Virus record (IMG/VR): IMGVR_UViG_3300008107_010192
Span: 11,507 to 75,506 of that record
Reading direction: 5' to 3' (one strand)
Origin: a virus
Taxonomy: Duplodnaviria > Heunggongvirae > Uroviricota > Caudoviricetes
DNA length: 64,000 nt
The first letter of the stretch is position 1. Each line of letters begins with the position of its first letter. A program made the translations under genes and the position numbers. Below are positions 10,518 to 61,175 of the stretch, piece after piece. Under the pieces are notes generated by a model. The model was not told the DNA's origin. It saw only the letters and a list, made by a program, of their open reading frames with translations, and did no database searches.

Positions 10518-10557
10518 ACTTAATATTTTCTTTTATATCCCAATATAACAAAATGCA

Positions 10558-11107: not shown

Positions 11108-11113
11108 TAATAT

Positions 11114-11542: not shown

Positions 11543-11704
11543 AGTAAAGTAATATCTAGTGGTTATAAATAAATGGGTCTCTTTTTCTTAGTTCCTCCAG
11601 TTTTTTCTTAAATCTTTTTTTCCTTTTATAGTTGTCTATACTTTTCTTTATCCAACTGAAAAGAATCAATCCCCTTAAGAACACAAAGAATTTTCTAAAG
11701 TGCT

Positions 11705-12052: not shown

Positions 12053-12153
12053 AGCGTTAGTTCTTTTAATATGTATTCTGATAATATAATATGGAATATC
12101 TCACCATAATGAAGATCTTCAACTTTTCCTTGGTGTCTCCAAAGACCCAAAGA

Positions 12154-24497: not shown

Positions 24498-24498
24498 G

Positions 24499-25152
24499 TT
24501 AAATTATTTTGGCGCTAGGCGCTATTTTATTGAATTCGTTGATCGAATGGCTAGAGTATTCTGGATCTTCAAATATAATTCCATGATTTCCGTTCCCACT
24601 TTTATCGAATGTTTTAAATTTTGAATTTCTTTCAAAATCAAAAAACGAGTACAGCTTTTTTGATTTCTCGTCAAAGGAATCGACGATTTCATCGAAAACT
24701 GCAATTTTATAAATATCCCCTTTGAACCAGCATTCATAAGATCCACTGTATGGATTTATAGATCCTATAAAAATATTCTTGTCCGAATAAGATTCAATTG
24801 GACCGGTTTCTTTTTCACCTTTTAAAATTCCATCGATGTATATTTTAACAGAATCTGAAACTGTCACCATGACCTCCATTCTTTTATGTATATCATCAAC
24901 AGGTATCCAAATATCGTTATATTGATAGGGTTTAGTGTACCAAGAGAATTTAACACCATTTGGTTTCTGTAAAAATATTCCCATATGGTATCCTATCCTT
25001 CCTACAATCAACGACTCATCCTCTGCAAACTCAGAGAGTTGAAAATCCCCATAAAGAGAAAAATTCCCCTCCAGATTTTCAAAATTCTTTGTGTTCGTAT
25101 TATTTTTAGAATTGTTTGGGATGTAATATGCTTTCTTTTCGAATCTCATCAA
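24499..25152 (-). CDS. LamG/concanavalin-like domain protein (tentative)
   Basis: MVTVSDSVKIYIDGILKGE...IFIGSINPYSGSYECWFKGDIYKIAVFDE resembles the LamG_3/pentraxin-type beta-sandwich. Confidence 0.35.
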   Translation of the reverse strand: MMRFEKKAYYIPNNSKNNTNTKNFENLEGNFSLYGDFQLSEFAEDESLIVGRIGYHMGIFLQKPNGVKFSWYTKPYQYNDIWIPVDDIHKRMEVMVTVSDSVKIYIDGILKGEKETGPIESYSDKNIFIGSINPYSGSYECWFKGDIYKIAVFDEIVDSFDEKSKKLYSFFDFERNSKFKTFDKSGNGNHGIIFEDPEYSSHSINEFNKIAPSAKII

Positions 25153-29281: not shown

Positions 29282-30684
29282 ATTCCTACGTTAATTTCTG
29301 TTATATTTCCCTCTCTTTTTCTTCCGTGATCTGTGTACTTTAGATCCGATAATCCGTCTCCAAATAAAAGATTGCTGTTATTTCTTACCTCGTTATAGAA
29401 TCTTAATTGATTCCATCTAGTTGCTTTATCCTTCCATCTATTTTCGAAGAAACCATTTTGCTCATGTTTCATGGATTTAAAGATAGAATCCCTTCTGATC
29501 GGAAGGTCTATTTTTTTAAACCAAGGACCTTCCATATCAACAATTTCACATTTGAAAATACTAGCATCGTTTCCGTTTCCTGAAAGATCTACTAACTTAT
29601 AATTTTCTATGTGCTCTGCATCATAGTGACAAAGAATGGATCCGGATTTTTTATATTCCGAAAAGTCGTTTGTTGCTGAAACAGATTTAACTTCATTTTC
29701 ACTTAAAATTCCTTCTAAGACTACCAAAGAATCTATGTACCCCTTGAAAAAATTAGGATCTCCATTTCTTTTAGGATTTCCTGCACCGATAAAGAAATAC
29801 TTTTCGTCTGAATAATCCTTTAATTCTCCCTCCCAATTTGTTTTTCCTATATGTTCTCCGTCTTGATAGAAATTTATTTCTCTCAACGATTGATTTAATG
29901 TGATACAAATATTTGTTTGATAATTAGTAGTTATTTCTGTGTTTATGTATGATGCTTTTTCTTCGGAGTTGAATGTAACAAAATTGTATCTCTTGAATGA
30001 ATTATAGGAAATTGCAGTGTCATACCCCGGAATGCTAAAAACCGTATAAACGTCAAGATCCTTCGTTGAATCATAAACCAATTCATCGGGGAAAAAAGAT
30101 GCAAATAATGTTAGATCCTTGTCTATGCAAAAATTATTTTTTGCTCTCACAAAAGAATCCTGTCCGTTAAATTTTAGTGATTTATGGAAATTTCTTGTTT
30201 TTTTGATGTAATAAGGCTCTGTGCCTATGCTCTTGTTTTTGCATCTTAGGAAAAGGTCATCATCTTCAAATCCCCATCCCCAATACTTATTTGAATATCC
30301 GTTTATCTTTTTGAAATCTTTAATCGGAAACATAGTGACCCCGCCGAAGTATTCGTCGAATGGCTTTGATCTTTCCCCCGAGTCCTCGTCCTCTATTAGA
30401 GTTGCAAGATGAACTGGATGATCACAGTAAGAATAATCAACATCCAATGGCAGCAAATCAACATCATGAAAAACCACATAATCACATCTTAAGTTTCTGG
30501 CACACTTAAATCCTATATTTAATAGCATCCCTCGATTAAATTGCTTACCGTCGTCTTGATTTACGATGATAATTTCATGTGGTATTTTTTCCTCGTTTAG
30601 ATATTTTACTATCTCCTTGAGAAAAAAATAAAGATGTTCCCCTCTGTGGCGGAAAGGAACTATGACTCCTAGTTTTTTATCCAT
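29278..30684 (-). CDS. GT7-family (beta-1,4-galactosyltransferase-like) glycosyltransferase with C-terminal extension (paralog)
   Basis: LGVIVPFRHRGEHL, QFNRGMLLNIGFKCA, YVVFHDVDLLPL: textbook beta4GalT motifs. Confidence 0.6.
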   Translation of the reverse strand: MDKKLGVIVPFRHRGEHLYFFLKEIVKYLNEEKIPHEIIIVNQDDGKQFNRGMLLNIGFKCARNLRCDYVVFHDVDLLPLDVDYSYCDHPVHLATLIEDEDSGERSKPFDEYFGGVTMFPIKDFKKINGYSNKYWGWGFEDDDLFLRCKNKSIGTEPYYIKKTRNFHKSLKFNGQDSFVRAKNNFCIDKDLTLFASFFPDELVYDSTKDLDVYTVFSIPGYDTAISYNSFKRYNFVTFNSEEKASYINTEITTNYQTNICITLNQSLREINFYQDGEHIGKTNWEGELKDYSDEKYFFIGAGNPKRNGDPNFFKGYIDSLVVLEGILSENEVKSVSATNDFSEYKKSGSILCHYDAEHIENYKLVDLSGNGNDASIFKCEIVDMEGPWFKKIDLPIRRDSIFKSMKHEQNGFFENRWKDKATRWNQLRFYNEVRNNSNLLFGDGLSDLKYTDHGRKREGNITEINVGI

Positions 30685-36838: not shown

Positions 36839-37220
36839 GGGGGTGTATTTGGCACTTGACAGACATTGGTAGTTCTTTGAGATGATGCAGGCCGAGTTAG
36901 TATTGGAAACTCGTTAATCACCTATGCAAACAATAAACGACGTAGAATTATCTACAATGACCTTCGAAGACGCTATGTCTTTCGTTGGTGCTGATTACGC
37001 AATAGCTGCCTAATCCCTCCCGCACACATCGTGGGGCTTAAAATAGAATGTGAACCCAGGTGGAATATGACTGAACCCGAAATCGAGTCATCTGAATTTG
37101 GTAGTTTAATCAGCCAACTATAAACTACATATTTTGTTTGTAAAGAAAAACAAGCTAAGCCTGTGAATGAGTTTCTTTTAACAGATGGACTGGACACCGG
37201 TTCGATTCCGGTCACCTCCA
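36839..37220 (+). ncRNA. ssrA: tmRNA (SsrA-like transfer-messenger RNA)
   Basis: 5' GGGGGTG pairs with 3' CACCTCC, giving a 7-bp acceptor with a G3:U70 wobble (Ala identity). T-arm ACCGG-TTCGATT-CCGGT precedes it; discriminator A then CA. Internal reading frame ends ...GADYAIAA-TAA (a YALAA-type degradation tag). About 380 nt. Confidence 0.65.
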
Positions 37221-37236
37221 CAAAAATTAATTTAAT

Positions 37237-39902: not shown

Positions 39903-40550
39903 ATGGCAAATGGAGTATACAAAATTACAGAAGAATTTGAAAAATCACTCGAAAGCTATACAGGAGCTCCACATGTTGTAACTTTAGACAATCAGAGTAA
40001 CGGACTTTTTCTTTCCCTATATTATGAAAATTACGTTAAAAAGAGCATAGAAAAAGGAAGTATAAAAATTCCAAGTCGAACTTATCCTTCAGTTCCTTGC
40101 GAGATTATTCATGCTGGCCTTAAAGTAGAGTTTGAGCATGTGAAAGGTAAGACGATTAAAGGTGCATACCAACTAAAAGGGAGCAAGGTTTGGGATTCTG
40201 CATTGTGTTTTACCTATAATATGTATAAGAAAAATACCCATATGTGCGTTTCTTTTACTGGACCATTTAAGCATTTTAAGTTGTCTAAAGGTGGAGCAAT
40301 ATTAACAGATGATCATGAAGCATATCTTTGGTTTAAAAGAGCTAGATATAGTGGCAGAAGAGAATGTTCTTATCATGACGATCACTTTGATATGCTGGGA
40401 TGGAATTTTTATATGATGCCAGAATTAGCAGCAAGGGGTTTACTCATGATGGGACAATTTTATGATCCTACAACGGGAAAACCTAAAAACAATCCAGATC
40501 TGGAACTACCATATCCAGATTTATCAAAATTTGATATTTATAAAAAATGA
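39903..40550 (+). CDS. hypothetical protein (weak similarity to DegT/DnrJ N-terminal region)
   Basis: EEFEKSLESYTGAPHVVTLDNQSNGLFLSL resembles the fE..f..y.G..h.v...SGT.AL.lal opening of sugar aminotransferases but is only 215 aa. Confidence 0.2.
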   Translation: MANGVYKITEEFEKSLESYTGAPHVVTLDNQSNGLFLSLYYENYVKKSIEKGSIKIPSRTYPSVPCEIIHAGLKVEFEHVKGKTIKGAYQLKGSKVWDSALCFTYNMYKKNTHMCVSFTGPFKHFKLSKGGAILTDDHEAYLWFKRARYSGRRECSYHDDHFDMLGWNFYMMPELAARGLLMMGQFYDPTTGKPKNNPDLELPYPDLSKFDIYKK

Positions 40551-42730
40551 GTAAAAAATTATCTATAATAATTCCCTCACTAAACAGGGAAAAATTACTT
40601 ATAAGTTCTATCAATAGCATAGTAGAAATTTTTAATTCATTCAACTTTCAAGATTATGATGTACATGCTATAGTAAATGGGTCAAACAAAAATACAACAG
40701 AAAAAATTAGAGAGAATATTTTTTTACATCATCATGAAAAAAAATTGAATCCTGGAATAGCGAGAAATATAGGAATTGAAAAAAGCGACTCTGAGTGGAT
40801 TTGGTTTATTGACGACGACGATGAAATAGTAGGTGAAAACATATCAAAAGTAATAGATTTTTTATACGACAAAAATGGTAATCATGGATTCGATTTAATA
40901 GCTCATTCTTTAAAAAATAAATACATTCCGGAAGATAATAAGAGATCTCTATTGGAAAATGTTTGTTTTTTTAAAGAAAAACAGGAGGCATTCAATTACA
41001 TTTTCAAAAGAGATTTAATAAAAAAGCATAATATATTATTTTCCGACGGATTACACGAGGATATCAGATACGTAACAGAACTGATAATAAATTCCTCCAT
41101 CATTAAAATATTTGATTTTTTCCTGTATAAAAAAATTAACCGGGATGATTCGATAACTAAAAATCTCAATCCATCTAGAATAGATGGATATTTACTAGCA
41201 ATCAGCGAGATTCAATCACTAGATAGCGATGAAATTTCTTCGATGTCTAATGGAATAGTGACACAGTGTCTAGGAACTATCCTATATCTAATAAACAAAT
41301 CCCAAAATAAGTTGGAGCTACTAGAATATCTGGACAGCAAATTCACATTTTATCTAAGATCAAAAATAACCGAAACGTATAGTGAAAAAGATACTAATTT
41401 CAAATACGCTGTTTCTCTTTACATTAATAAGAAAGACAATCTAGTATTTCTTGAAAGATTAAACGAATGCTTTTCTAGCTATCTCTCTTGTAGAGATCTA
41501 AAAAACTCAATATTTCTTGGTCCGAAAGAAATAATAGGATGCTGTAAAAGATTCTTTTATAATGGTAAGATGAAGGGTGACATCGTTTTAATGTCGGAAT
41601 CAATAGATGTTAATTTAGATTCTATACTTAAAAGAAAGGCTGAGGTTGAAGATGGGATAAATTCACAGACATATGAACCTTGTGAGGGGTGCCCTTATAT
41701 AGAAAGATATAGTAGATTAGAAAATAAAAAAATAAACTACATAAGCTTAGAAAATTTCACTTATTGCAACATGCGTTGTACTTATTGTTCTCCTAAATAT
41801 TATGGGGGTAAAGAAGCAGTATACAACACTCATGATATAATTAGTCAATTAATAGATGGTGAATATCTTGACGATAAAGTACACGTTGTTTGGGGAGGGG
41901 GAGAGCCAACATTACAAAGGGAATTTGGGGAAATAACAGAGAAACTAATAAACATAGAAAATGTCTATAAGATAAGAGTTCTTACAAACAGTCTAAGATT
42001 TTCAAACGATCTTTATAACCTAGCATCGAATGATAAAATAAGGATAGTTACTAGTATAGATGCAGGAACTCAAGATGTATTTAAAAATATCAGGGGAAAA
42101 GGAGAAATTTTAACAGTTTTAGAGAACCTAAAAAAATATACAGAGCAAACCAAGGATCCAGAGAATCTAACTTTAAAATACATTCTAACTGAACAAAACT
42201 ATCATTCCAATCAGTTAGAACAATTTGTAAAAACTATAAAAGAATTTGGATTTGAAAACAATTTTGTCCAAATAAGTTGTAATTTTTTATATGATCATCT
42301 GGGTGATGAGATAATATTTTCAATATACGAATTAGCAGCTAGACTATTAAATAATGGATTTAAGTTTGTTTATTTTGATGATTTAATCCGTGACAGATTA
42401 GCTATAAGTGAGGATATTGCGGATAAAGTAATCAATTATTTGTCGGAAAAATACCTCTATCACGATGATATAATTTCTTATAAGAGTAATAAACGGGTAG
42501 TTCTTTGGGGAGATGGATACCAATCTAGATGGATAAAAAACAGCACAACCTTTGGAAAATCTAATAAAATAAGGGGAATCGTTTCCGATATAAATGGATT
42601 TAACAATTTGAATTTAAATGTGGGTTTTACAGTATCCCCTGCCGCAATCCAACAATTACCAGACATATTTAAGGAAATTAAGAAGGAAAAAGATGTCTAT
42701 AATAAATTGAAATTCCACATATTTCTATAA
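40547..42730 (+). CDS. fusion protein: N-terminal GT2 (GT-A) glycosyltransferase + C-terminal radical SAM domain
   Basis: N-term LSIIIPSLNREKLL...GIARNIGIEKS...WIWFIDDDDE (GT2 motifs incl. DxD). C-terminal half has FTYCNMRCTYC (CxxxCxxC) and VVWGGGEPTL (GGE motif). Confidence 0.65.
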   Translation: MSKKLSIIIPSLNREKLLISSINSIVEIFNSFNFQDYDVHAIVNGSNKNTTEKIRENIFLHHHEKKLNPGIARNIGIEKSDSEWIWFIDDDDEIVGENISKVIDFLYDKNGNHGFDLIAHSLKNKYIPEDNKRSLLENVCFFKEKQEAFNYIFKRDLIKKHNILFSDGLHEDIRYVTELIINSSIIKIFDFFLYKKINRDDSITKNLNPSRIDGYLLAISEIQSLDSDEISSMSNGIVTQCLGTILYLINKSQNKLELLEYLDSKFTFYLRSKITETYSEKDTNFKYAVSLYINKKDNLVFLERLNECFSSYLSCRDLKNSIFLGPKEIIGCCKRFFYNGKMKGDIVLMSESIDVNLDSILKRKAEVEDGINSQTYEPCEGCPYIERYSRLENKKINYISLENFTYCNMRCTYCSPKYYGGKEAVYNTHDIISQLIDGEYLDDKVHVVWGGGEPTLQREFGEITEKLINIENVYKIRVLTNSLRFSNDLYNLASNDKIRIVTSIDAGTQDVFKNIRGKGEILTVLENLKKYTEQTKDPENLTLKYILTEQNYHSNQLEQFVKTIKEFGFENNFVQISCNFLYDHLGDEIIFSIYELAARLLNNGFKFVYFDDLIRDRLAISEDIADKVINYLSEKYLYHDDIISYKSNKRVVLWGDGYQSRWIKNSTTFGKSNKIRGIVSDINGFNNLNLNVGFTVSPAAIQQLPDIFKEIKKEKDVYNKLKFHIFL

Positions 42731-45033: not shown

Positions 45034-45357
45034 ATGATTACAGTAACTGAAAAAGCAGCACAAAGAATTAAATACCTAATAGAAGAAGCAGAAGATTCTA
45101 AGTTTTATCTAAGAGTATCTGTTAAAGGGGGAGGATGTAGCGGACTTTCATATGATTTATCATTTGATGACGAGATGAACGAAAAAGACACTCTTTATGA
45201 AGATAAAGCAGTTAAAATATTAGTGGATAATAAATCCATTCTTTATCTGTTTGGAACTGAACTAGACTTCTCTGACGGACTTAACGGTAAGGGATTTCAG
45301 TTCGTAAATCCTAATGCCTCCCGCACATGTGGATGTGGAGAAAGCTTTGCTGTGTAG
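45034..45357 (+). CDS. A-type Fe-S cluster carrier (IscA/SufA/ErpA, HesB family)
   Basis: ITVTEKAAQRIKYL...YLRVSVKGGGCSGLSYDLSFDD...VDNKSILYLFGTELDFSDGLNGKGFQFVNPNASRTCGCGESF: the HesB signature (GGCSG ... C-G-C-G-E-S-F) is complete. Confidence 0.8.
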   Translation: MITVTEKAAQRIKYLIEEAEDSKFYLRVSVKGGGCSGLSYDLSFDDEMNEKDTLYEDKAVKILVDNKSILYLFGTELDFSDGLNGKGFQFVNPNASRTCGCGESFAV

Positions 45358-45373
45358 CTTGATATATAGCTAC

Positions 45374-46066
45374 ATGATAAAGGGGTTTTCTGAATACATT
45401 AACGAAGCTTATAGCAATCCTAAAAATTATACGGATTTAAAATACGGAAATCCACAAAAGTGGCAAAAAGAAGCCATGGACAGAGGATCTAACCTTTTAA
45501 AATCTGTCAAAGAATCAAATCTTTGGGAAAAATGGACTTCTAGTTTACCTCCCAATCAAGATTCAGAGGAGGTAAAATCCGATTTACAAAATTTAATTCT
45601 CATGGGAAATTCTTTAACCGAGGAGGAAAAAGAGTTTGTAAAGGATTCAGAAAATGATATGCTAGGAATCTTTGAGAAATTTTTAAAGTTAAATGGGGTT
45701 GATTCTATTAAGAAAGAAGATTTGGAATCGGTAACAGATGAATTGGATCCGATCACTTTTATTTTAAAATATCAGTTTAACTATCCTAGACCACTTCAAC
45801 TGGCTCTTGTCCACGACATACCCCTTTATCCAGAGCAGCCAACTAACGCTTGCAGTCCCGCTTATCCTTCCGGACACTCAATAGATGCTTTTGTGATTGC
45901 TGGATTGATTGCTAAAAAATACCCTCAACTTGCCGATGATGTTTCTAAGCTTTCTGAAAGAGTTTCTATGACTAGAAACCTGGGAGGAATACATTTCACG
46001 TTTGATTCATCCTTTGGTAAAGAAATAGCAGAAGATATACTTTCTTTGGATCTTTTATCCCTTTAG
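45374..46066 (+). CDS. PAP2-superfamily phosphatase-like protein
   Basis: KYQFNYPRP (KxxxxxxRP), AYPSGHS (PSGH), SMTRNLGGIHFTFD (SRxxxxxHxxxD): all three PAP2 motifs present. Start set to internal Met to avoid overlapping iscA. Confidence 0.55.
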   Translation: MIKGFSEYINEAYSNPKNYTDLKYGNPQKWQKEAMDRGSNLLKSVKESNLWEKWTSSLPPNQDSEEVKSDLQNLILMGNSLTEEEKEFVKDSENDMLGIFEKFLKLNGVDSIKKEDLESVTDELDPITFILKYQFNYPRPLQLALVHDIPLYPEQPTNACSPAYPSGHSIDAFVIAGLIAKKYPQLADDVSKLSERVSMTRNLGGIHFTFDSSFGKEIAEDILSLDLLSL

Positions 46067-46183: not shown

Positions 46184-49100
46184 ATGGCAAATTATAGAAT
46201 TTTAGGACAAGAAACTGTTAACAATTCGGTAAGTCCGGGACCTACCCTTGTAACACTTTATACGGTTCCTCAAAATGCTTCCATTCTAATCAATGCAATA
46301 ACCGGATATAATGAGGGATTTAATAGTGGATATCTTACCGTTGCAGTAAAAAGGAACGGGGACGAGGACTATTCTCCAGATCAAATTGTTATAAATACTC
46401 CCTTAGCACCCGGTGCTTCAATACAAATTTCTCCTCAATTTTCTCCTGTTGGTTTAACTGCCGGCGACGTAATACTTTTAGTTGGTAATTATTCTCCTGC
46501 CCCTACAACAGTAGCGGTAACCTTATTCGGTGAAGACGGGGCTTCTAGCGGTGGATCCGGCAATGCAGGAACATCCGGAACTTCAGGAAACAGTGGGGGC
46601 TCAAGTACTTCAGGAAGTAATGGTACTAGCGGGACTTCGGGAACTAATGGATCTACAGGAACTGGTGGTACTAGTGGTACCTCTGGAATGAACGGATCTA
46701 TCGGAACTAATGGTACGAGTGGAACCTCAGGTGAAACCTTCGGAACTAGTGGAACGTCAGGGGCAGCTGGTGCTCCTGGAGCAGCGGGATCTTCTGGAAC
46801 ATCTGGGGTTTCCGGAGCATCTGGTTCTTCTGGAACCTCTGGGGTTTCCGGAGCATCCGGTTCTTCCGGAACATCGGGAAATTCAGGTTCTTCTGGAACA
46901 TCTGGGATTTCCGGGGCATCTGGTTCTTCCGGAACATCAGGAAATTCGGGATCCTCTGGTACATCAGGAAATTCGGGAACCTCTGGTACTTCGGGAGAAT
47001 CTGGTTCTGCTGGTACATCCGGATCATCTGGAACATCAGGAAACTCCGGGTCATCCGGTACATCAGGAAACTCCGGGTCCTCCGGTACATCAGGAAATTC
47101 GGGAACCTCTGGTACTTCTGGGGAATCTGGCTCTTCTGGAACATCAGGATTCTCTGGGTCCTCCGGAACATCAGGAAACTCCGGGTCATCCGGTACATCA
47201 GGATCCTCTGGAGAACCCGGTTCTGCCGGAACATCGGGATCCTCAGGTACATCTGGTACATCAGGAAACTCCGGGTCATCCGGTACATCAGGGTCATCCG
47301 GTACATCAGGGTCCTCTGGTACATCTGGTGCTGATGGTACATCCGGTTCTTCCGGAACCTCGGGAAACCCTGGATCATCAGGGACCTCTGGAACATCAGG
47401 AAACTCTGGATCATCGGGGACATCCGGATCCGCTGGAACTTCTGGTTTAAGCGGAATATCTGCAGGACAGATTTATTATTTTAACCAATCTCAGTCTTCT
47501 GACATTTCTCCATATAAAGTCCTTAGTGTTTACCCATCAGGAGCTGCTGAACAAACAGTTCCTATGGTATTAACGGGCGGGCAATTGAATGTTCTGGTAA
47601 GTCAATTCCTGACCCCCGAATTGGGATTTGCTGTAATTCCACCAGGCACTCAGAGATTTCATCTGCATTTTTTAAAACAACAGTTTAATGATGACATAGA
47701 TGGCTATGTTACCATAGAACTTGCAAATTCGTCAGGTGTAGGATATGGCACTATTATTCAATCAAACAAAGCTTTAATTGGATGGGTGAGTGTTTCTCAA
47801 TCTTATGAGCTGTTGGTTGATATTGTTTTACCTTCAGTATACATAAACACCACAGACAGAATGATTGTCAAGGTTTACGTTGACAATAATGAAGCAACCG
47901 TCAGAAATTTAACTTGGTACACAGAGGGGGCTCAAAACTATTCATATGTAATCACATCGGTTGGAGCAATTGTAGCAAGCTCTGGAACGTCAGGGAGTTC
48001 TGGAACTAGTGGATCAAGCGGAACTTCGGGATCCGGGGGTTCATCAGGAACTAGCGGATCTAGTGGATCGGAGGGAACTTCAGGTAGCTCTGGTACTTCC
48101 GGCAGTTCTGGAACCTCTGGAGAAGATGGAACTTCAGGTAGCTCTGGTACTTCCGGCAGTTCTGGAACCTCTGGAGAAGATGGAACTTCGGGATCTGGGG
48201 GTTCATCAGGAACTAGCGGATCTAGTGGATCGGAGGGAACTTCAGGTAGCTCTGGTACTTCGGGAACCTCTGGAGAAGATGGAACTTCAGGTAGCTCTGG
48301 TACTTCGGGAACCTCTGGAGAAGATGGAACTAGTGGATCTTCAGGTACATCAGGAACCTCGGGGGTGTGCGAGTGTCCACACAGCTACACTATCACGGCT
48401 CCAACGGATATCACGTGTTACTCTTTAACAAATGACGGAGATCCCGACAACGTAAATAGTACAAACTATCTCGATTGTAACGGGAATCCTGCGGTCATTT
48501 ACAATAAAATTTTTCTCACACCAGCTACTTATTTCTGTGCTCAGACCGGATCTGTTACAACTGATTCGGGGCTCACTGTAATATCAGTACCTGATGATCC
48601 TGGATCTTGCGACGGATGTTGCGATGGATATGCTTATTCTTATACCGACGAAACAGATACTATCATAAGTGGAATCATATATGACGGAGAATCTCTAACT
48701 TTCTGTGCGATCCCAGGATCTGTAGTTTGGTCCCATACAATAGTAGACAATGGGCATTGTGTAGGAAGTTCAGGTACTTCCGGCAGTTCTGGTTCGAATG
48801 GTACGTCAGGTAGCTCTGGTACTTCCGGCAGTTCTGGTTCGAATGGTACGTCAGGTAGCTCTGGTACTTCCGGCAGTTCTGGATCTTCTGGGACATCAGG
48901 AACTGATGGTTCCTCCGGTAGTACAGGTACTTCTGGTTCTTCCGGCAGTTCTGGATCTTCTGGGACATCAGGAACTGATGGTTCCTCCGGTAGTACAGGT
49001 ACTTCTGGATCCTCAGGGTCATCTGGAACTTCCGGAACTGATGGATCTTCAGGTACATCAGGTAACTCTGGTTCTTCTGGAACCTCAGGATCAGCAGGTA

Positions 49101-49315
49101 CATCAGGAAATGAGGGTCCCCCTGGATCTTCGGGAACGTCAGGAATTGATGGAACCAACGGATCGACAGGTTCTTCTGGAACCTCAGGAAACTCTGGTTC
49201 TTCAGGTACTTCAGGTACTTCAGGTAGTTCTGGTTCAACTGGTACTTCAGGTAGTTCTGGTTCTTCTGGAACCTCTGGTTCTTCTGGTTCAACTGGTACT
49301 TCAGGTACTTCGTAG
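46184..49315 (+). CDS. collagen-like repeat fibre protein (tail-fibre/tailspike candidate), N-terminal reading frame ending at a frameshift
   Basis: Hundreds of Gly-X-Y triplets (GTSGSSGTSGNSG...) interrupted by two globular inserts, one Cys-rich (VCECPH...CDGCCDGY). Frame ends at TAG 49313-49315 inside the repeat, where ggtacttcAGgtagttctgg appears as ggtacttc--gtagttctgg. Confidence 0.55.
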   Translation: MANYRILGQETVNNSVSPGPTLVTLYTVPQNASILINAITGYNEGFNSGYLTVAVKRNGDEDYSPDQIVINTPLAPGASIQISPQFSPVGLTAGDVILLVGNYSPAPTTVAVTLFGEDGASSGGSGNAGTSGTSGNSGGSSTSGSNGTSGTSGTNGSTGTGGTSGTSGMNGSIGTNGTSGTSGETFGTSGTSGAAGAPGAAGSSGTSGVSGASGSSGTSGVSGASGSSGTSGNSGSSGTSGISGASGSSGTSGNSGSSGTSGNSGTSGTSGESGSAGTSGSSGTSGNSGSSGTSGNSGSSGTSGNSGTSGTSGESGSSGTSGFSGSSGTSGNSGSSGTSGSSGEPGSAGTSGSSGTSGTSGNSGSSGTSGSSGTSGSSGTSGADGTSGSSGTSGNPGSSGTSGTSGNSGSSGTSGSAGTSGLSGISAGQIYYFNQSQSSDISPYKVLSVYPSGAAEQTVPMVLTGGQLNVLVSQFLTPELGFAVIPPGTQRFHLHFLKQQFNDDIDGYVTIELANSSGVGYGTIIQSNKALIGWVSVSQSYELLVDIVLPSVYINTTDRMIVKVYVDNNEATVRNLTWYTEGAQNYSYVITSVGAIVASSGTSGSSGTSGSSGTSGSGGSSGTSGSSGSEGTSGSSGTSGSSGTSGEDGTSGSSGTSGSSGTSGEDGTSGSGGSSGTSGSSGSEGTSGSSGTSGTSGEDGTSGSSGTSGTSGEDGTSGSSGTSGTSGVCECPHSYTITAPTDITCYSLTNDGDPDNVNSTNYLDCNGNPAVIYNKIFLTPATYFCAQTGSVTTDSGLTVISVPDDPGSCDGCCDGYAYSYTDETDTIISGIIYDGESLTFCAIPGSVVWSHTIVDNGHCVGSSGTSGSSGSNGTSGSSGTSGSSGSNGTSGSSGTSGSSGSSGTSGTDGSSGSTGTSGSSGSSGSSGTSGTDGSSGSTGTSGSSGSSGTSGTDGSSGTSGNSGSSGTSGSAGTSGNEGPPGSSGTSGIDGTNGSTGSSGTSGNSGSSGTSGTSGSSGSTGTSGSSGSSGTSGSSGSTGTSGTS

Positions 49316-50822
49316 TTCTGGTTCTTCTGGAACCTCAGGAAACTCTGGATCTTCTGGAACCTCTGGAGCATCAGGATCTTCTGGAACCTCAGGAAACTCT
49401 GGTTCTTCTGGAACCTCTGGAGCATCAGGTAGTTCTGGTTCTTCTGGAACCTCTGGAGCATCAGGATCTTCTGGAACCTCAGGAAACTCTGGATCTTCTG
49501 GAACCTCAGGAAACTCTGGATCTTCTGGAACCTCTGGAGCATCAGGATCTTCTGGAACCTCAGGAAACTCTGGATCTTCTGGAACCTCTGGAGCATCAGG
49601 ATCTTCTGGAACCTCTGGAGCATCGGGAGCTAATGGATCTTCTGGAACCTCTGGAGCATCAGGATCTTCTGGAACCTCTGGAGCATCAGGAGCTAATGGA
49701 TCTTCTGGAACCTCTGGAGCATCAGGAGCTAATGGATCTTCTGGAACCTCAGGAAACTCTGGTTCTTCTGGAACCTCTGGAGCATCAGGAGCTAATGGAT
49801 CTTCTGGAACCTCAGGATCTTCTGGAACCCGAGGTTCCTCAGGAACTTCAGGAGCTTCCGGTGGAAACGGAACATCCGGAACTTCAGGAGCTTCCGGGGG
49901 AAGCGGAACATCCGGAACTTCGGGAGCTTCTAGTTCAGCAATATCTAGTAATAACATCGACAACTATGTTGTTACCATGACTGGAAACAATTCCACGCCT
50001 TTCCAAGGGGAGCCTAACTTAACATTCGATAATACGAGACTTTTTGTAACTGGGAAAGTAAGGGTTTATCAAAATCCATTAAGCATAAGTTCAGGAAGTC
50101 TTTCTTGGCCTTTAAGATCTGGAGCAAATGCAACAGTTACTTTAAATCAAAATGTAACTACGTTTACACTTAGCGAATTTGAAGCTGGAGATACTGGGGT
50201 ATTAATAGTAAAACAAGATGCTACTGGAGGTAGAACAATGGTACTTCCCTCTAGTTCACAAGTAGTTGGAGGAGGATCTTATACCCCAACATCCGCTGCA
50301 AACTCACAAGACGTTCTTGGAGTTTACTACGACGGAACAACATATTTCTGGACCATTGGGCTCGCTAGTGTTACAGGTAACTTACTTACAATAAACAATA
50401 ATGCAGATCACAGAATATTGACTGCAACTGGTAGTGCTACTTCGATAGACGGAGAAACAGGATTGACTTATAACAGCAGTACATTAGCAGTAACTGGAGC
50501 AATCACAGCAACAGGAGATATCACTGCTTATTCATCTTCGGATGAAAGATTAAAGGATAATATTTCGGTTATTCAGGATGCTTTGGAAAAGGTCTCTAGC
50601 ATAAGAGGAGTGGAATTTGATTGGAACGACAAGGCTCATGAAGTTAATAGAGGTCACGATCTTGGAGTAATTGCTCAAGAGCTGATTAAAGTTCTTCCTG
50701 ATGCAGTTAAAGAAAGAGAAGATGGATATTATGGGGTAAGATATGACAGAATTATACCTCTTCTCATAGAGGCTATAAAAGACTTAAGAAAAGAAATAGA
50801 AGAACTTAAAAGAGAAAAATAA
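49314..50822 (+). CDS. collagen-like fibre protein, C-terminal part in the shifted frame, ending in an intramolecular-chaperone (peptidase S74-like) domain
   Basis: Continues the GSSGTSG repeats, then a beta-rich domain and C-terminal SSDERLKDNISVIQDALEKV...DLGVIAQELIKVLPDAV...YDRIIPLLIEAIKDLRKEIEELK (S74/CIMCD consensus with the Ser-Lys dyad). ORF-track 48798..50822 covers this frame. Confidence 0.55.
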   Translation, partial: SSGSSGTSGNSGSSGTSGASGSSGTSGNSGSSGTSGASGSSGSSGTSGASGSSGTSGNSGSSGTSGNSGSSGTSGASGSSGTSGNSGSSGTSGASGSSGTSGASGANGSSGTSGASGSSGTSGASGANGSSGTSGASGANGSSGTSGNSGSSGTSGASGANGSSGTSGSSGTRGSSGTSGASGGNGTSGTSGASGGSGTSGTSGASSSAISSNNIDNYVVTMTGNNSTPFQGEPNLTFDNTRLFVTGKVRVYQNPLSISSGSLSWPLRSGANATVTLNQNVTTFTLSEFEAGDTGVLIVKQDATGGRTMVLPSSSQVVGGGSYTPTSAANSQDVLGVYYDGTTYFWTIGLASVTGNLLTINNNADHRILTATGSATSIDGETGLTYNSSTLAVTGAITATGDITAYSSSDERLKDNISVIQDALEKVSSIRGVEFDWNDKAHEVNRGHDLGVIAQELIKVLPDAVKEREDGYYGVRYDRIIPLLIEAIKDLRKEIEELKREK

Positions 50823-51175
50823 TGACACATTTAGAGCCAGTAATAGTTCAAAATGAAATACCTCCATACTTTGATATTTACTTTGAAAACACCCTTCCAG
50901 AAGGTGAGGATGAATTTTCTTTTTCTTTTGGACCCCAACCGGGATACGATACTTGGGAGATAGAATTCGCTGAAGGATCAACTGATTGGGAGGTTAAACC
51001 TGATGGCTGGGTACAGATTGAAATAGGATGGGGTCAAGAAACATATTTAACCCCTTTCCATCATTTGAACCAAATAATACATTTAGAATTTAATAGAATC
51101 CATGTGATGAAACCCGGAACTCTAAAAACATTAAAATTAAGAGGTAGAAGAATAGCATTGAAAGATAAATCATGA
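50822..51175 (+). CDS. hypothetical protein (fibre-associated?)
   Basis: 117-aa ORF starting at the fibre-gene stop (ATGA-type overlap). Confidence 0.35.
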   Translation: MTHLEPVIVQNEIPPYFDIYFENTLPEGEDEFSFSFGPQPGYDTWEIEFAEGSTDWEVKPDGWVQIEIGWGQETYLTPFHHLNQIIHLEFNRIHVMKPGTLKTLKLRGRRIALKDKS

Positions 51176-51876
51176 GCCAGAGATATTACATGACCAGCTT
51201 AGGAAGAAGGCCTACTGGACCATCTACTGCTATCATCGGTAGTGATGCCGATGTTCTGATGTTCAGATATGTTTGGCCAGGAACTTTGAATGGAGGTGAT
51301 GCTGATACATTCACTGGCATTGAACCAGGAACTGGTACATCCTATGATGGTATAAAAAATGCTAGCGGGGCACCAACCCGTTATGTTGGATATGCTCCAG
51401 GGGGAGGAATGACATCTACTGTGGGCTCGACGACAGGCATAAATACCTCAACAACACTCATTTATTGGGCTGGTGATAATACCTCAACTGCTGGACAGGA
51501 AGTTGTTTTAGTTAGACCCAAATCAATAGCTGCATTAGACACCTCTATAACAAGATGGAAAATCGGAATATATCTCAATTGGTATGATACAGTAGGGGTT
51601 GGGTGTATGGACTTTATAATCAGGTGCTACAGTGGTTCAACTTTCTCGGATACCGGTACAGACATCAGTGCATCAGGGGGAACGCTTTTAAGAACTTACC
51701 TGTTTAATGCTAATACAAACAACCAAAATAATCCCTCTGGGACTGGATACCCATCGAATGGTATCAATGGATATGCTCAAATCGGTATTTTTGAATTTTT
51801 TTCCAGTGGAGATGGGTTTTTTAGATATAATCTAACCTCTATCGGGAGCTGCAGTACTGAGAATGATATGGCTTAA
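51172..51876 (+). CDS. hypothetical Gly/Thr/Ser-rich beta protein (possible fibre or receptor-binding accessory)
   Basis: 234-aa ORF, Gly/Thr/Ser-rich, follows the fibre genes. Confidence 0.35.
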   Translation: MSQRYYMTSLGRRPTGPSTAIIGSDADVLMFRYVWPGTLNGGDADTFTGIEPGTGTSYDGIKNASGAPTRYVGYAPGGGMTSTVGSTTGINTSTTLIYWAGDNTSTAGQEVVLVRPKSIAALDTSITRWKIGIYLNWYDTVGVGCMDFIIRCYSGSTFSDTGTDISASGGTLLRTYLFNANTNNQNNPSGTGYPSNGINGYAQIGIFEFFSSGDGFFRYNLTSIGSCSTENDMA

Positions 51877-52130: not shown

Positions 52131-52217
52131 GGAGGCTTGGCAGAGCGGTCGAATGCGGCAGTCTTGAAAACTGCTTTACGGGTAACTGTAACCGGGGTTC
52201 GAATCCCTGAGCCTCCG
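52131..52217 (+). tRNA. tRNA-Ser (anticodon TGA)
   Basis: GGAGGCT/AGCCTCC acceptor, anticodon arm GCAGT-CTTGAAA-ACTGC, long variable arm, T-loop TTCGAAT. Confidence 0.8.
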
Positions 52218-52222
52218 CAATT

Positions 52223-52295
52223 GCCTCCTTAGCTCAGCTGGTAGAGCGACGCACTTGTAATGCGTAGGTCATTGGTTCGATCCCGATAGGAGGCT
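52223..52295 (+). tRNA. tRNA-Thr (anticodon TGT)
   Basis: GCCTCCT/AGGAGGC acceptor, D-arm TAGCTCAGCTGGTAGAGC, anticodon arm ACGCA-CTTGTAA-TGCGT, T-loop TTCGATC. Confidence 0.8.
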
Positions 52296-52366
52296 CGATA
52301 CTAACGTAAAACTTGTACACTAACATAATCCTTGTTAGCGTACAAAAAGTTCGTTAGCAGTCAAAT

Positions 52367-52453
52367 AGAGAGGTGTCCGAGAGGCTGATGGAGCACGCTT
52401 GGAAAGCGTGTTTACGAGCGATCGTAACAAGGGTTCGAATCCCTTTCTCTCTG
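52367..52453 (+). tRNA. tRNA-Ser (anticodon GGA)
   Basis: AGAGAGG/TCTCTCT acceptor, TG-TCCGAGAGGCTGA D-arm, anticodon arm CACGC-TTGGAAA-GCGTG, long variable arm, T-arm AAGGG-TTCGAAT-CCCTT. Confidence 0.7.
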
Positions 52454-52458
52454 CACAT

Positions 52459-52562
52459 GCCGGTGTGGCGGAATGATGACTTGGCCAGTCATAGACGTCC
52501 CTGATCTAGAGTGGGGGTGTAACCGAAAAGGACACCGTGAAGGTAAACAACCCTTCCACCGG
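52459..52562 (+). other. aberrant tRNA-like element (pseudo-tRNA or tRNA with inserted hairpin)
   Basis: Perfect acceptor pairing GCCGGTG...CACCGGC-A-CC; the Leu/Tyr-type D-arm start TG-GCGGAAT is interrupted by a 17-nt hairpin ATGACT-TGGCC-AGTCAT. No clean 7-nt anticodon loop, and T-loop TAAACAAC is non-canonical. Total ~104 nt. Confidence 0.3.
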
Positions 52563-52570
52563 CACCTTTT

Positions 52571-52656
52571 GCCTGGGTGTTGGAATAGGTAGACAAGACA
52601 GACTTAAAATCTGTTGGACTGCAAAGTCCGTGCGGGTTCGATTCCCGCCCCAGGTA
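52571..52656 (+). tRNA. tRNA-Leu (anticodon TAA)
   Basis: GCCTGGG/CCCAGGT acceptor (G1.U72), anticodon arm ACAGA-CTTAAAA-TCTGT, long variable arm, T-arm GCGGG-TTCGATT-CCCGC. Confidence 0.8.
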
Positions 52657-52753
52657 CAAACCAAAAACAGCGTCGAGCCACATTTTGCGTCGTTCTTGGT
52701 CTAGATCTTCTCAACGGGAGAGGTGGCCGCGACCCCGAGGAGATCACCAAATT

Positions 52754-52827
<74 letters not shown>

Positions 52828-52836
52828 CATTAAAAT

Positions 52837-52910
52837 GTTGGATGTAGCTCAGTTGGCAGAGCACTAGCTTGTGGCGCTAGATGTCGCCGGTTCGATCCCG
52901 GTCGTTCAAC
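52837..52910 (+). tRNA. tRNA-His (anticodon GTG) with encoded G-1
   Basis: G(-1)-TTGGATG ... anticodon arm CTAGC-TTGTGGC-GCTAG, T-arm GCCGG-TTCGATC-CCGGT, acceptor 3' CGTTCAA, discriminator C73 opposite G-1. Confidence 0.75.
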
Positions 52911-52916
52911 CATTAT

Positions 52917-52993
52917 CGAGTAGTTCGGGAGTCAGGTTACCCGGCTTGGTTTGGGACCAAGACAACTCGCAAGTTCGAATCTTGCCTACTCGA
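52917..52993 (+). tRNA. tRNA-Pro (anticodon TGG)
   Basis: Acceptor CGAGTAG/CTACTCG, D-stem CGGG/CCCG, anticodon arm CTTGG-TTTGGGA-CCAAG, T-arm GCAAG-TTCGAAT-CTTGC; variable loop appears 7 nt. Confidence 0.65.
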
Positions 52994-52999
52994 CAAAAA

Positions 53000-53090
53000 G
53001 GAGAGGTGCCTGAGTGGCCGAAAGGGCCGGTTTGCTAAACCGTTGTACGGACTTAAATCTGTACCGAGGGTTCGAATCCCTCCCTCTCCG
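53000..53090 (+). tRNA. tRNA-Ser (anticodon GCT)
   Basis: GGAGAGG/CCTCTCC acceptor, anticodon arm CCGGT-TTGCTAA-ACCG, long variable arm, T-arm GAGGG-TTCGAAT-CCCTC. Confidence 0.8.
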
Positions 53091-53150
53091 CGTAGATTCT
53101 AAGCTAATTTTCTTTCCAGTAGGATATATAAATGGACATAAAAATAGGAA

Positions 53151-58863: not shown

Positions 58864-58935
58864 GGCGATTTGGCCGAGTGGTTCAGGCAGGGGTCTGCAA
58901 AACCTCTTACTCCAGTTCGACTCTGGAAATCGCCT
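58864..58935 (+). tRNA. tRNA-Cys (anticodon GCA)
   Basis: GGCGATT/AATCGCC acceptor, anticodon arm GGGGT-CTGCAAA-ACCTC, T-arm TCCAG-TTCGACT-CTGGA. Confidence 0.75.
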
Positions 58936-58943
58936 CAGAAATT

Positions 58944-59015
58944 GGGGATATAGCTCAGCGGTAGAGCAAGCGACTGTTAATCGCTAGGTCATAGGTTCGA
59001 ATCCTTTTATCCCCG
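58944..59015 (+). tRNA. tRNA-Asn (anticodon GTT)
   Basis: GGGGATA/TATCCCC acceptor, TAGCTCAGCGGTAGAGC D-arm, anticodon arm AGCGA-CTGTTAA-TCGCT, T-loop TTCGAAT. Confidence 0.8.
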
Positions 59016-59045
59016 CAGATGGTTCTTTGACATATTGGAAAACTT

Positions 59046-59117
59046 GGCCCCGTCGTCTAATGGTTAGGACGCCTCCCTTTCACGGAGGAAATTTCGGTTC
59101 GACTCCGTGCGGGGCTA
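59046..59117 (+). tRNA. tRNA-Glu (anticodon TTC)
   Basis: GGCCCCG/CGGGGCT acceptor, TC-GTCT-AATGGTTA-GGAC D-arm as in bacterial tRNA-Glu, anticodon arm CCTCC-CTTTCAC-GGAGG, T-loop TTCGACT. Confidence 0.75.
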
Positions 59118-59125
59118 CATTCGAG

Positions 59126-59198
59126 GATCTCTTAGCTCAATCGGTAGAGCACTACACTTTTAATGTAGGGGTTTTGGGTTCGAGTCCCAAAGGGATCA
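59126..59198 (+). tRNA. tRNA-Lys (anticodon TTT)
   Basis: GATCTCT/AGGGATC acceptor, TAGCTCAATCGGTAGAGC D-arm, anticodon arm CTACA-CTTTTAA-TGTAG, T-arm TTGGG-TTCGAGT-CCCAA. Confidence 0.75.
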
Positions 59199-59287
59199 CA
59201 TAATACCTTATTATAAGCTCATAGCTGAACTCTAATTTTTAATCAGATTTAGATACTATAAGCTAAAATAATCTCTTTAAACAAAGC

Positions 59288-59369
59288 GGGAGCATCGCAT
59301 AGCGGCAATTGCAAGGGACTGTAAATCCCTCCTCTTACGAGTTCGGTGGTTCGAGTCCACCTGCTCCCA
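59288..59369 (+). tRNA. tRNA-Tyr (anticodon GTA), bacterial type with long variable arm
   Basis: GGGAGCA/TGCTCCC acceptor, anticodon arm AGGGA-CTGTAAA-TCCCT, long variable arm, T-arm GGTGG-TTCGAGT-CCACC. Confidence 0.8.
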
Positions 59370-59453
59370 CAAATCAGAAGCGGTAAGAAGCGTTACTTCA
59401 TCAAAATTGGATTTGACAACAACACACGCTGATTAAATATTCTCTGATTTTAT

Positions 59454-59524
59454 TGCCCGATGGTGTAATGGCAGCACAAGTGGTTTTGGTCCACTTAGTC
59501 TAGGTTCGAATCCTAGTCGGGCAT
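59454..59524 (+). tRNA. tRNA-Gln (anticodon TTG)
   Basis: TGCCCGA/TCGGGCA acceptor (U1-A72 as in bacterial tRNA-Gln), anticodon arm AGTGG-TTTTGGT-CCACT, T-arm CTAGG-TTCGAAT-CCTAG. Confidence 0.7.
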
Positions 59525-59529
59525 CATTA

Positions 59530-60186
59530 TTACCAATAATAGGATTCCCATTTAAATTTTTCAATCGGAGTAAATACTGGTTCTTTTGTTCCGTATGATG
59601 CACGCTTCTCCACATCATCTTTAGGATTTTGAAGAATTTGGAGTGCATAATCTACAATTCTGGGTCCATGAGGTAAAACGTGAGTAACTTTATATCGGGA
59701 TGCAAATTCTTTCACCCTGTTTATTATTTCAGGTAATATCTCATAGTATTTTTCACTGTATCTTGATCCCCATGTTCTTTCAATTTTAAGATAATTTTCT
59801 GAATCCCATGATGCTCCGGGGGCGTAAACCTTTATAGGGGAGAATTGATAAACAGTATCTATATACATAGGATGATAATAGGAGATAAGACACTCAAGTT
59901 CTTCCAGCTTATTTCCTATGAACCCCTTTATATTTTTTTCCGCATGTTCTGCTCTTTTGATCTCGTCATTATTTAAGGTGAATCCCCCCCTCCACCCAAG
60001 ATAACATGCATCAATTAATTTGGACTGATTTCTCTCGCTGAAAAGTTCCTCTATCTTTTCCTCGTTATAAATTGGCCCAGTTATTACTGTTCTATTATGG
60101 AGGATTTTTTTAAATTCCATCCCGAATAGATCTCTTCCTTTCTGAGAGATACCATAAAAACTCTCGTAAATTGTTAGATGTCTCAC
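59530..60186 (-). CDS. hypothetical protein
   Basis: 218-aa minus-strand ORF; no motif recognised. Confidence 0.35.
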   Translation of the reverse strand: MRHLTIYESFYGISQKGRDLFGMEFKKILHNRTVITGPIYNEEKIEELFSERNQSKLIDACYLGWRGGFTLNNDEIKRAEHAEKNIKGFIGNKLEELECLISYYHPMYIDTVYQFSPIKVYAPGASWDSENYLKIERTWGSRYSEKYYEILPEIINRVKEFASRYKVTHVLPHGPRIVDYALQILQNPKDDVEKRASYGTKEPVFTPIEKFKWESYYW

Positions 60187-60259
60187 AAATCTATATATTC
60201 CGCATTTTTTATTAATAATCCTCTTTATTAAATTTGGGATAGATAGGAAACACTTTTAT

Positions 60260-60754
60260 ATGAAAACGAAAAAAATATTAGTGCTAATTTTTCTTTTTTT
60301 AATTCCAGCTTGGGAATTTCAAAAAGAACCAGATTTTAAATTCTTCAAAATAATTCCGGAGGAGGTAGAAAAAATTTCTCATCAAAATCTTTATAATGAA
60401 ATTATTGAAAGCGGAATAAAATTCCCCGAAATAGCTTTCGTACAGGCAATTATAGAATCCGGGAATTTTACATCCGGGCTTTTTAAAAAGCATAACAATC
60501 TTTTTGGAATGAGATTTCCAGGAAGGAGAGAAACAACTTCTATAGGTAGAAACAAAAGGGGATATGCAAGATACGAAGATTGGGACGATAGCGTAAAGGA
60601 TTATTTTCATTGGCAATCCTTTTTTATGAGAAGGAGAGACATCAACACCAAAGAAGAGTATCTAGATCTTTTAGATGATGTGTATGCTGAAGATAAATCT
60701 TATGTTACTGTTATTAGAAAGAATATAAAGCAATACAAACACATTTTTGATTAA
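60260..60754 (+). CDS. GH73-family N-acetylglucosaminidase (FlgJ-type glucosaminidase domain) with signal peptide
   Basis: Signal peptide MKTKKILVLIFLFLIPAWE; EIAFVQAIIESGNFTSGLFKKHNNLFGMRF matches the glucosaminidase (PF01832) A..ESg.g.S.l....NN.FGik core. Confidence 0.65.
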   Translation: MKTKKILVLIFLFLIPAWEFQKEPDFKFFKIIPEEVEKISHQNLYNEIIESGIKFPEIAFVQAIIESGNFTSGLFKKHNNLFGMRFPGRRETTSIGRNKRGYARYEDWDDSVKDYFHWQSFFMRRRDINTKEEYLDLLDDVYAEDKSYVTVIRKNIKQYKHIFD

Positions 60755-60755
60755 T

Positions 60756-60829
60756 GGACCGGTAGTTCAGCTGGTTAGAATGCCGCCCTGTCACGGCGGA
60801 GGTCGCGGGTTCGAGTCCCGTCCGGTCCG
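60756..60829 (+). tRNA. tRNA-Asp (anticodon GTC)
   Basis: GGACCGG/CCGGTCC acceptor, TAGTTCAGCTGGTTAGAAT D-arm, anticodon arm GCCGC-CTGTCAC-GCGGA, T-arm GCGGG-TTCGAGT-CCCGT. Confidence 0.8.
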
Positions 60830-60830
60830 C

Positions 60831-60874
60831 AAATGGTCAAAATTTGAGTAGTAAAACGGTCAAAATTTGAGTAG
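60831..60874. repeat. tandem direct repeat 2 x AAA(T/C)GGTCAAAATTTGAGTAG (period 23 nt)
   Basis: aaatGGTCAAAATTTGAGTAGtaaaacGGTCAAAATTTGAGTAG between tRNA-Asp and tRNA-Gly; candidate protein-binding or promoter element. Confidence 0.5.
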
Positions 60875-60927
60875 CAAATAATTACTAGGAACTTTTAAAA
60901 TTTTTTAGCATATAATTTCGGATACTA

Positions 60928-61000
60928 GCAGCGGTGGTGTTCAATGGTAGCACGCCAGCCTTCCAAGCTGGACGAGAGGGTTCGAATCCCTTTCGCTGCT
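60928..61000 (+). tRNA. tRNA-Gly (anticodon TCC)
   Basis: GCAGCGG/TCGCTGC acceptor, anticodon arm CCAGC-CTTCCAA-GCTGG, T-arm GAGGG-TTCGAAT-CCCTT. Confidence 0.75.
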
Positions 61001-61009
61001 CAATATAAT

Positions 61010-61043
61010 AAACCAGATTCTGTCTAATAATCACATCTGGTTT
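61010..61043 (+). terminator. rho-independent terminator-like hairpin
   Basis: AAACCAGAT-(16 nt loop)-ATCTGGTTT followed by ATTTAGT; sits between the two tRNA-Gly genes. Confidence 0.35.
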
Positions 61044-61067
61044 ATTTAGTAAAAACAGGTTTAGTAA

Positions 61068-61140
<73 letters not shown>

Positions 61141-61175
61141 CAAAATATAAAAACAAGTATTTTTATAAATAGAAC

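Follow-up and report, generated by a model that had tools for sequence, protein, structure and literature searches.

A TAG stop in the collagen-like tract of a long, predicted phage tail-fibre gene is private to one metagenomic assembly and probably an artefact

The Ser-Lys dyad of the S74 intramolecular chaperone domain has a catalytic role. Described phage fibres and tailspikes with this domain include the K1F endosialidase, the L-shaped fibre pb1 of T5 and the long tail fibre of S16 (PDB 6f45, 8jov). Here we analysed a 64,000-nt stretch of DNA from a tailed phage (IMG/VR record IMGVR_UViG_3300008107_010192, positions 11,507 to 75,506; hereafter the window), in which positions 46184-50822 encode a collagen-like, S74-terminated protein. 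The reading frame is interrupted inside a Gly-X-Y tract by a TAG stop codon at 49313-49315. Comparison with other assemblies of the same phage demonstrated that 46184-50822 is one gene, and the interruption is probably an assembly fault. Residue numbers given below refer to the repaired protein of 1,546 aa.

With the S74 fibres and tailspikes the window protein shares a C-terminal PF13884 domain of about 94 aa in which the S-D-x-R-x-K motif can be aligned (SDERLK at aa 1453-1458 with SDERLK of 8jov and SDRRIK of 6f45). The domain order is also alike, S74 following a beta-rich region that matches tail-fibre PHROG families. In contrast to the solved S74 fibres, the shaft comprises approximately 820 residues of collagen-like repeats and not a triple beta-helix or coiled coil; sequence identity is low, and the match is confined to the last 105 residues or so, that is S74 plus about 12 residues before it.

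Gly-X-Y tracts combined with phage fibre domains are known from the collagen-like tail-fibre proteins of E. coli O157:H7 prophages (PMC3368898) and were found here in metagenomic Caudovirales proteins annotated as 'collagen triple helix repeat' (clusters P0001-P0058). Compared to these, the window fibre is two to three times longer (1,546-1,567 aa versus 300-750 aa) and has three tracts, an orphan N-terminal domain and a Cys-rich insert, termed D2. Among collagen-like phage fibres that end in an S74 chaperone domain, a known class, it is a new and unusually long member, and it is a large modular representative of an uncultivated family of such fibres that carry a further insert, termed D1.

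Outside phages, BclA of the Bacillus exosporium filaments has a similarly Thr/Ser-rich collagen-like region, whose repeat number varies between strains and sets filament length. BclA is glycosylated (PMC8968730), and both proteins are candidates for O-glycosylation. However, BclA uses Gly-Pro-Thr triplets and ends in a C1q-like trimerisation domain, whereas the window fibre contains about 1% Pro, has Ser at 85% of the Y positions and ends in S74. The host-recognition clusters of pelagimyophages and cyanomyophages are comparable in gene content, with collagen-repeat fibre genes amid many glycosyltransferase and sugar-modifying genes in a variable region (PMC7029224); this likeness does not establish membership of the group. 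The window lacks the hallmark structural genes and carries a transfer-messenger RNA (tmRNA), and related contigs suggest a genome of more than 200 kb.

A sequence-only reading of the window had proposed one collagen-like fibre gene, about 1,550 aa in length and ending in an S74 chaperone domain, split in its Gly-X-Y repeat by a 2-nt deletion that creates a TAG. The single gene, the S74 domain and the position of the break all held. The upstream open reading frame (ORF) of 1,043 codons terminates at the TAG, and the frame that ends at 50822 is open as far back as 48765. Insertion of AG at the break yields an ORF of 1,546 aa, through which a Gly-X-Y tract of 390 residues (130 triplets) runs unbroken. 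The 20-mer GGTACTTCAGGTAGTTCTGG is present in two copies, at 49214 and 49241, and the 18-mer GGTACTTCGTAGTTCTGG, which equals the 20-mer minus AG and contains the TAG, occurs once, at 49304-49321. Neither the 20-mer nor the 18-mer occurrences are expected by chance.

Contigs of the same phage were retrieved by exact look-up of the products of two flanking genes (the 234-aa ORF at 51172 and the IscA-like ORF at 45034). This gave 19 contigs from ENA, JGI, NCBI and Logan, and a scan of the metagenome collection for the pattern flanking the junction added one more (L091). Complete, unbroken orthologues of 1,552 aa and 1,567 aa are encoded by L001 and L092, respectively. The break site is crossed by seven contigs from seven samples (L001, L002, L091, L092, L093, L096 and L098), and all of them are in frame. 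At 49311/49312, where the window reads ACTTCGTAGTT, each of the seven has extra sequence: the 29-nt block CGGTAGTTCTGGTTCAACTGGTACTTCAG, with one A-for-C difference in L098, or 38 nt in the case of L002. The window junction thereby takes the form ACTTCAGGTACTTCGTAGTTCTGGTTC where the intact alleles have ACTTCAGGTACTTCCGGTAGTTCTGG and ACTGGTACTTCAGGTAGTTCTGGTTCTTC. The missing 29 nt (38 nt relative to L002) correspond to one repeat unit of 27 nt (36 nt) plus 2 nt. Two nucleotides do repair the frame, as the sequence-only reading had it; as judged from the aligned alleles, the event itself is a contraction by a repeat unit of 27 nt plus 2 nt, private to the window assembly.

Over the gene, the crossing assemblies differ from the window by 0-6 substitutions. 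L092, for instance, shows two substitutions in 4.7 kb, one in-frame gap of 36 nt and the 29-nt gap. Indels were scored in pairwise alignments with free end gaps, which replaced a MAFFT multiple alignment in which the truncated contigs had produced spurious end gaps of odd length. In eight other assemblies 14 indels were found and all 14 are multiples of 9 nt; indels between alleles always keep the Gly-X-Y triplet register. They fall mostly into tract 3 and otherwise into tracts 1 and 2, and the 29 nt of the window are the sole length that is not a multiple of 9. Moreover, no other occurrence of the window junction was detected in scans of metagenome, viral and GTDB genome contigs, and no exact record was found for the 1,043-aa, 674-aa and minus-strand 327-aa products of the window.

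Between samples the fibre gene displays almost exclusively in-frame indels, ranging from 9 to 171 nt, and partial contigs lack up to 171 nt at one site. These length differences in steps of 9 nt reflect either a real polymorphism of shaft length or repeat collapse during assembly. A 36-nt deletion near 49204, initially regarded as shared with L094, was withdrawn; L094 ends inside the repeat at 49253 and is uninformative on this point.

We infer that the stop at 49313 is a mis-join or consensus error in the repeat tract that is private to this assembly, with a probability of roughly 0.65. An assembly or sequencing error was among the options named beforehand, and an artefact or private mutation fits, since all seven of the other assemblies read through in frame, the junction recurs nowhere else and no other indel departs from multiples of 9 nt. 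The tracts are difficult for assembly in general: 13 or more of the retrieved contigs have an end within them, and short-read assemblers therefore rarely cross the region.

Several observations weigh against this interpretation of the locus. Assembled contigs alone do not separate an artefact from a real rare allele. Assemblers that rely purely on de Bruijn graphs cannot create junction k-mers of their own; if one of these was used without scaffolding or polishing, some reads must carry the junction. The contigs that are 99.99-100% identical to the window over their overlap (L094, L097, L099, L004 and L010) all end short of the site, L094 stopping at 49253 and L004 starting at 49748, and in that strain the site is therefore documented by the window alone. 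Matches of 99.99-100% identity to the flanks in the window stem from the samples SRR5574091, SRR7182478, JGI 3300042691 and JGI 3300031951. As to the product, the neighbours of the fibre gene in the window are sugar-modifying enzymes and tRNAs, with no structural genes to back a role as tail fibre, and a Pro-free Gly-Thr/Ser-Ser tract would not necessarily form a collagen triple helix.

The alternative that survives best is a real and recent null allele, in which the sampled population had lost 29 nt through an imprecise repeat contraction and its fibre was cut short after residue 1,043. Such a variant might be tolerated by virtue of other receptor-binding proteins, or it might be transient and defective. 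The gain and loss of repeat units between samples would be in line with this scenario, as would the read support that graph assemblers require for a junction k-mer, and elsewhere the window is accurate as a consensus, matching L004, L010 and L099 at 100% identity over 2-12 kb. Nevertheless, we consider it rather unlikely. None of the seven other assemblies carries the allele, and the public scans showed its junction nowhere else. The sequence past the stop (1.5 kb) is undecayed and identical to intact alleles. The truncated product would be devoid of the tip and of the S74 folding domain, and no in-frame start codon is found between 49150 and 49976, which leaves no restart within 660 nt of the stop. 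Dominance of such an allele in the population is unlikely for a strongly conserved 4.6-kb gene with only 2-6 substitutions. An established pseudogene, also suggested in the sequence-only reading, is at odds with the same conservation and the missing restart codon.

A regulated break has much less in its favour. It would involve either phase variation by slippage or a +1/-2 ribosomal frameshift at ACT TCG TAG, resulting in truncated and full-length fibres side by side. Contingency loci in receptor-binding genes are known from other systems, and the gene is highly repetitive and varies in length from sample to sample. Yet the site (ACTTC/GTAG) shows no AG run, dinucleotide repeat, homopolymer or slippery motif, and neither the +1 nor the -2 frame provides a codon for re-pairing at TCG-TAG. 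Furthermore, all slippage observed in the tract proceeds in frame-keeping multiples of 9 nt, none of the seven relatives has the stop and hence nothing is conserved, and a +1 product would disrupt the Gly register (GTS-SS-GSS). Regulation of this kind is highly improbable, and phase variation by dinucleotide slippage, which had been put forward for the fibre, does not agree with the lack of an AG repeat and the loss of a whole 29-nt block. Two separate genes, encoding proximal and distal subunits of a naturally split fibre as in the T4 long tail fibre, are scarcely conceivable: multi-subunit fibres exist and the downstream part has its own trimerisation and chaperone domain, but the orthologues are single ORFs, the split lies inside a continuous tract of 130 triplets, and downstream of the startless interval no ribosome-binding site can be seen in front of the ATG at 49977.

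Readings of the break as programmed frameshifting, as dinucleotide slippage or as a natural split into two genes were accordingly rejected on the evidence of the orthologues and the site, and the stop at 49313 is taken to be neither a designed feature nor a biological switch. In annotation, the pair of ORFs ought to be joined into a single fibre gene or marked as a probable assembly frameshift, and not be listed as a pseudogene or switch. The case also calls for caution, as long Gly-X-Y tracts break or mis-join metagenome assemblies and spawn spurious open frames on both strands. Across the tracts, minus-strand ORFs (e.g. 48640..49623, reading PEVPEEPE...) and alternative plus-strand frames are present; they are by-products of the repeat and are not considered genes. 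On truncated contigs gene callers sometimes choose such spurious frames, for example a 299-aa minus-strand call in L002.

The domain map of the repaired protein is given in the table together with the other features. Pfam profiles confirmed the two families named by the sequence-only reading. Collagen (PF01391) matched both parts of the gene (E 1.7e-77 upstream, 5.7e-28 downstream). Peptidase_S74 (PF13884) scored 60.6-61.8 bits against a gathering score of 22 (E 1.8e-16 and, on the C-terminal piece alone, 7.4e-17) and its whole profile (1-58 of 58) aligned to residues 409-466 of the downstream translation. The S74 domain forms the last 94 residues of the protein. The region in front of it matched 40 PHROG families, mostly tail fibre or baseplate (best E 4.7e-46), tblastn retrieved fibre C-termini in 421 phage records, and a precomputed PF26209 (Phage_phiTE_241_C) assignment exists for an identical 281-aa product. 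An AlphaFold2 (AF2) single-sequence model of the C-terminal 296 aa was unusable (predicted local distance difference test score 35).

Table. Features of the fibre locus and of two other gene pairs in the window
Feature	Position	Strand	Basis or remark
Upstream fibre part	46184..49315	+	ORF list; start ATG same as in the intact L001 and L092 genes
Downstream fibre part, shifted frame	49314..50822	+	502 codons plus stop; ORF list, Pfam
Frameshifting junction GGTACTTC / GTAGTTCTGG	49304..49321	+	29 nt absent between 49311 and 49312, present in seven other assemblies
N-terminal non-collagen domain, aa 1-122	46184..46549	+	Domain map; presumed virion attachment
Collagen-like tract 1, aa 123-426	46550..47461	+	Two small interruptions near start; Gly-X-Y map, Pfam Collagen
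Insert D1, aa 427-600	47462..47983	+	Jelly-roll beta-sandwich resembling carbohydrate-binding modules
Collagen-like tract 2, aa 601-729	47984..48370	+	43 triplets; Gly-X-Y map
Insert D2, aa 730-860	48371..48763	+	Cys-rich, 9 Cys; no detectable homologues
Collagen-like tract 3, aa 861-1250	48764..49931	+	130 triplets once repaired; holds the break
C-terminal non-collagen beta-rich fibre region, aa 1251-1452	49932..50537	+	PHROG, tblastn; presumed distal receptor-binding part
S74 intramolecular chaperone domain, aa 1453-1546	50538..50819	+	PF13884; SDERLK motif 50538-50555 at its start
Two paralogous GT7 proteins	27839-29281 and 29278-30684	-	30% identical to each other
Two ORFs, 117 aa and 234 aa	50822-51175 and 51172-51876	+	Starts overlap preceding stops

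The N-terminal domain had no Pfam or PHROG match, and an exhaustive HMMER search among 1.8 billion representatives returned five homologues that were weak or short and uninformative. Insert D1 is more widespread, with 58 metagenomic homologue clusters (the P0001-P0058 set) at 43-66% identity. In complete proteins of this group D1 is flanked by Gly-X-Y tracts, and in some of these proteins the C-terminus is formed by S74 or Phage_tail_C. No D1 was detected in cultured phages in an INPHARED search. The D1 fold is a beta-sandwich jelly roll similar to carbohydrate-binding modules (CBMs) and galactose-binding-like domains, with a sequence identity to CBMs of 5-17%. Homologues with both D1 and S74 were found in myovirus-like structural modules on two contigs (L100 and L101), beside large structural genes and with gp25 adjoining in L101. 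Taken together, the domain content suggests that an uncultivated large phage encodes here a tail fibre of about 1,550 aa that is modular and trimeric.

Close relatives beyond the contigs of the same phage were not apparent. A scan of IMG/VR for relatives of the C-terminal part gave distant fibres only (at most 61% identity) and no close relative. In INPHARED, blastn and tblastn uncovered no relative among cultured phages; the matches were confined to the collagen repeats of 735-kb uncultured phages and to generic S74 fibre ends. A word-indexed protein search missed the near-identical 1,552-aa protein and returned D1 homologues only.

The collagen-like tracts comprise 253 triplets (80 + 43 + 130, perfect), in which X is Thr in 40% and Ser in 36% and Y is Ser in 85%. 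Pro occupies 5 of 506 X/Y positions (0.4% of X, 1.6% of Y) and Lys none, in agreement with the Ser/Thr-rich and Pro/Lys-poor character described for the repeats earlier. The tracts thus display the Gly periodicity of collagen but not a composition with helix-stabilising Pro/Hyp (or Pro at X and Thr at Y). In bacterial collagens, Pro makes up 19% of X and Thr 32% of Y on average (PMC8968730). This unusual composition, a Ser-dominated and nearly Pro-free repeat, and the apparent length polymorphism in 9-nt steps are the main residual interest of the gene.

Based on the domain map, a possible course of fibre assembly can be outlined, in which the role of each domain is tentative. The orphan N-terminal domain would fix the fibre to the virion, and the three (Gly-Thr/Ser-Ser)n tracts would build the shaft, interrupted by the CBM-like jelly roll D1 and the Cys-rich D2 as nodules. 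The beta-rich C-terminal region would constitute the distal tip. As in known S74 fibres, folding of the trimer might be nucleated and driven at the C-terminus by the S74 domain, which would subsequently remove itself by Ser-Lys autoproteolysis at SDERLK. The fibre left behind would be long and segmented and would bind the host surface by its tip and perhaps by D1.

Two GT7 glycosyltransferase genes are indeed present in the window, at 27839-30684 on the minus strand, as the sequence-only reading had noted. The N-terminal approximately 165 aa of the GT7 proteins match the catalytic domains of animal beta4GalT7 and beta4GalT1 (E 1e-30 to 7e-33; PDB 3lw6, 1tvy), and each protein is fused to a Laminin_G_3/ConA-like lectin domain. 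GT7 occurs mainly in animals, which makes a fusion of GT7 and lectin in a phage unusual. The genes lie 15-18 kb from the fibre gene on the opposite strand, and the link between GT7 and fibre glycosylation is one of spatial association only. Immediately upstream of the fibre gene are genes for a GT2-radical SAM protein, GT8, GFO/Idh/MocA, ATP-grasp and other enzymes. In myophage host-recognition clusters, such glycosyltransferases are read as host-surface modifiers (PMC7029224). It is conceivable, if quite doubtful, that the shaft is O-glycosylated on Ser/Thr by the GT7 proteins of the phage or by the flanking GT2, GT8 and sugar-nucleotide enzymes, that the glycans stabilise or shield the helix, and that in-frame gain or loss in 9-nt steps tunes fibre length between populations.

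A different set of neighbours was observed in a related large phage (L101, positions 10001-21734 of a 171-kb contig, JGI 3300071632). There, a D1-family collagen/S74 fibre gene is followed by three 2-oxoglutarate (2OG)-Fe(II) oxygenase genes, one of them of the prolyl-hydroxylase-type 2OG-FeII_Oxy_3 family, as well as by a sulfotransferase gene, two GT2 genes and another collagen-like gene. These neighbours possibly represent a different set of collagen-modifying enzymes beside a homologous fibre.

The 117-aa and 234-aa ORFs that follow the fibre gene are translationally coupled to it and possibly fibre-associated. Their gene order is kept in all related contigs, and their sole family match is phrog_24956, a family without assigned function. 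The 234-aa protein occurs with identical sequence in 43 blocks of the public collection; the phage is therefore widespread over many samples. A scan for promoters and terminators gave counts not above chance. Directly upstream of the fibre gene, after the ATP-grasp and GFO/Idh/MocA genes, lie genes for an IscA/HesB-type iron-sulphur assembly protein (45034-45357) and a PAP2-family phosphatase (45314-46066), both on the plus strand.

Outside the fibre gene the window is low in GC (about 30-39%) and organised in long same-strand gene blocks. It encodes families typical of phages, such as an HNH endonuclease, a 2OG oxygenase and many sugar-modifying enzymes. The tmRNA gene is located at 36839-37221 on the plus strand (tag peptide DVELSTMTFEDAMSFVGADYAIAA). 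In addition, 21 tRNA genes were found within 38885-61141, mostly in clusters just 3' of the fibre operon (52131-53091 and 58864-61141). A 624-aa ORF on the minus strand (8643-10517) had no family match over its N-terminal approximately 460 aa; Hint, intein-splicing and pretoxin-HINT domains were matched (E 1e-10 to 1e-13) by the C-terminal 150 aa or so. The minus strand within 19540-26531 encodes four radical-SAM paralogues, of which two carry SPASM domains (19540-20709, 20691-22028, 22938-24497 and 25149-26531); their genes are interleaved with that of a DUF6071 protein and adjoin the GT7 pair, and the GT2-radical SAM fusion is located at 40547-42730.

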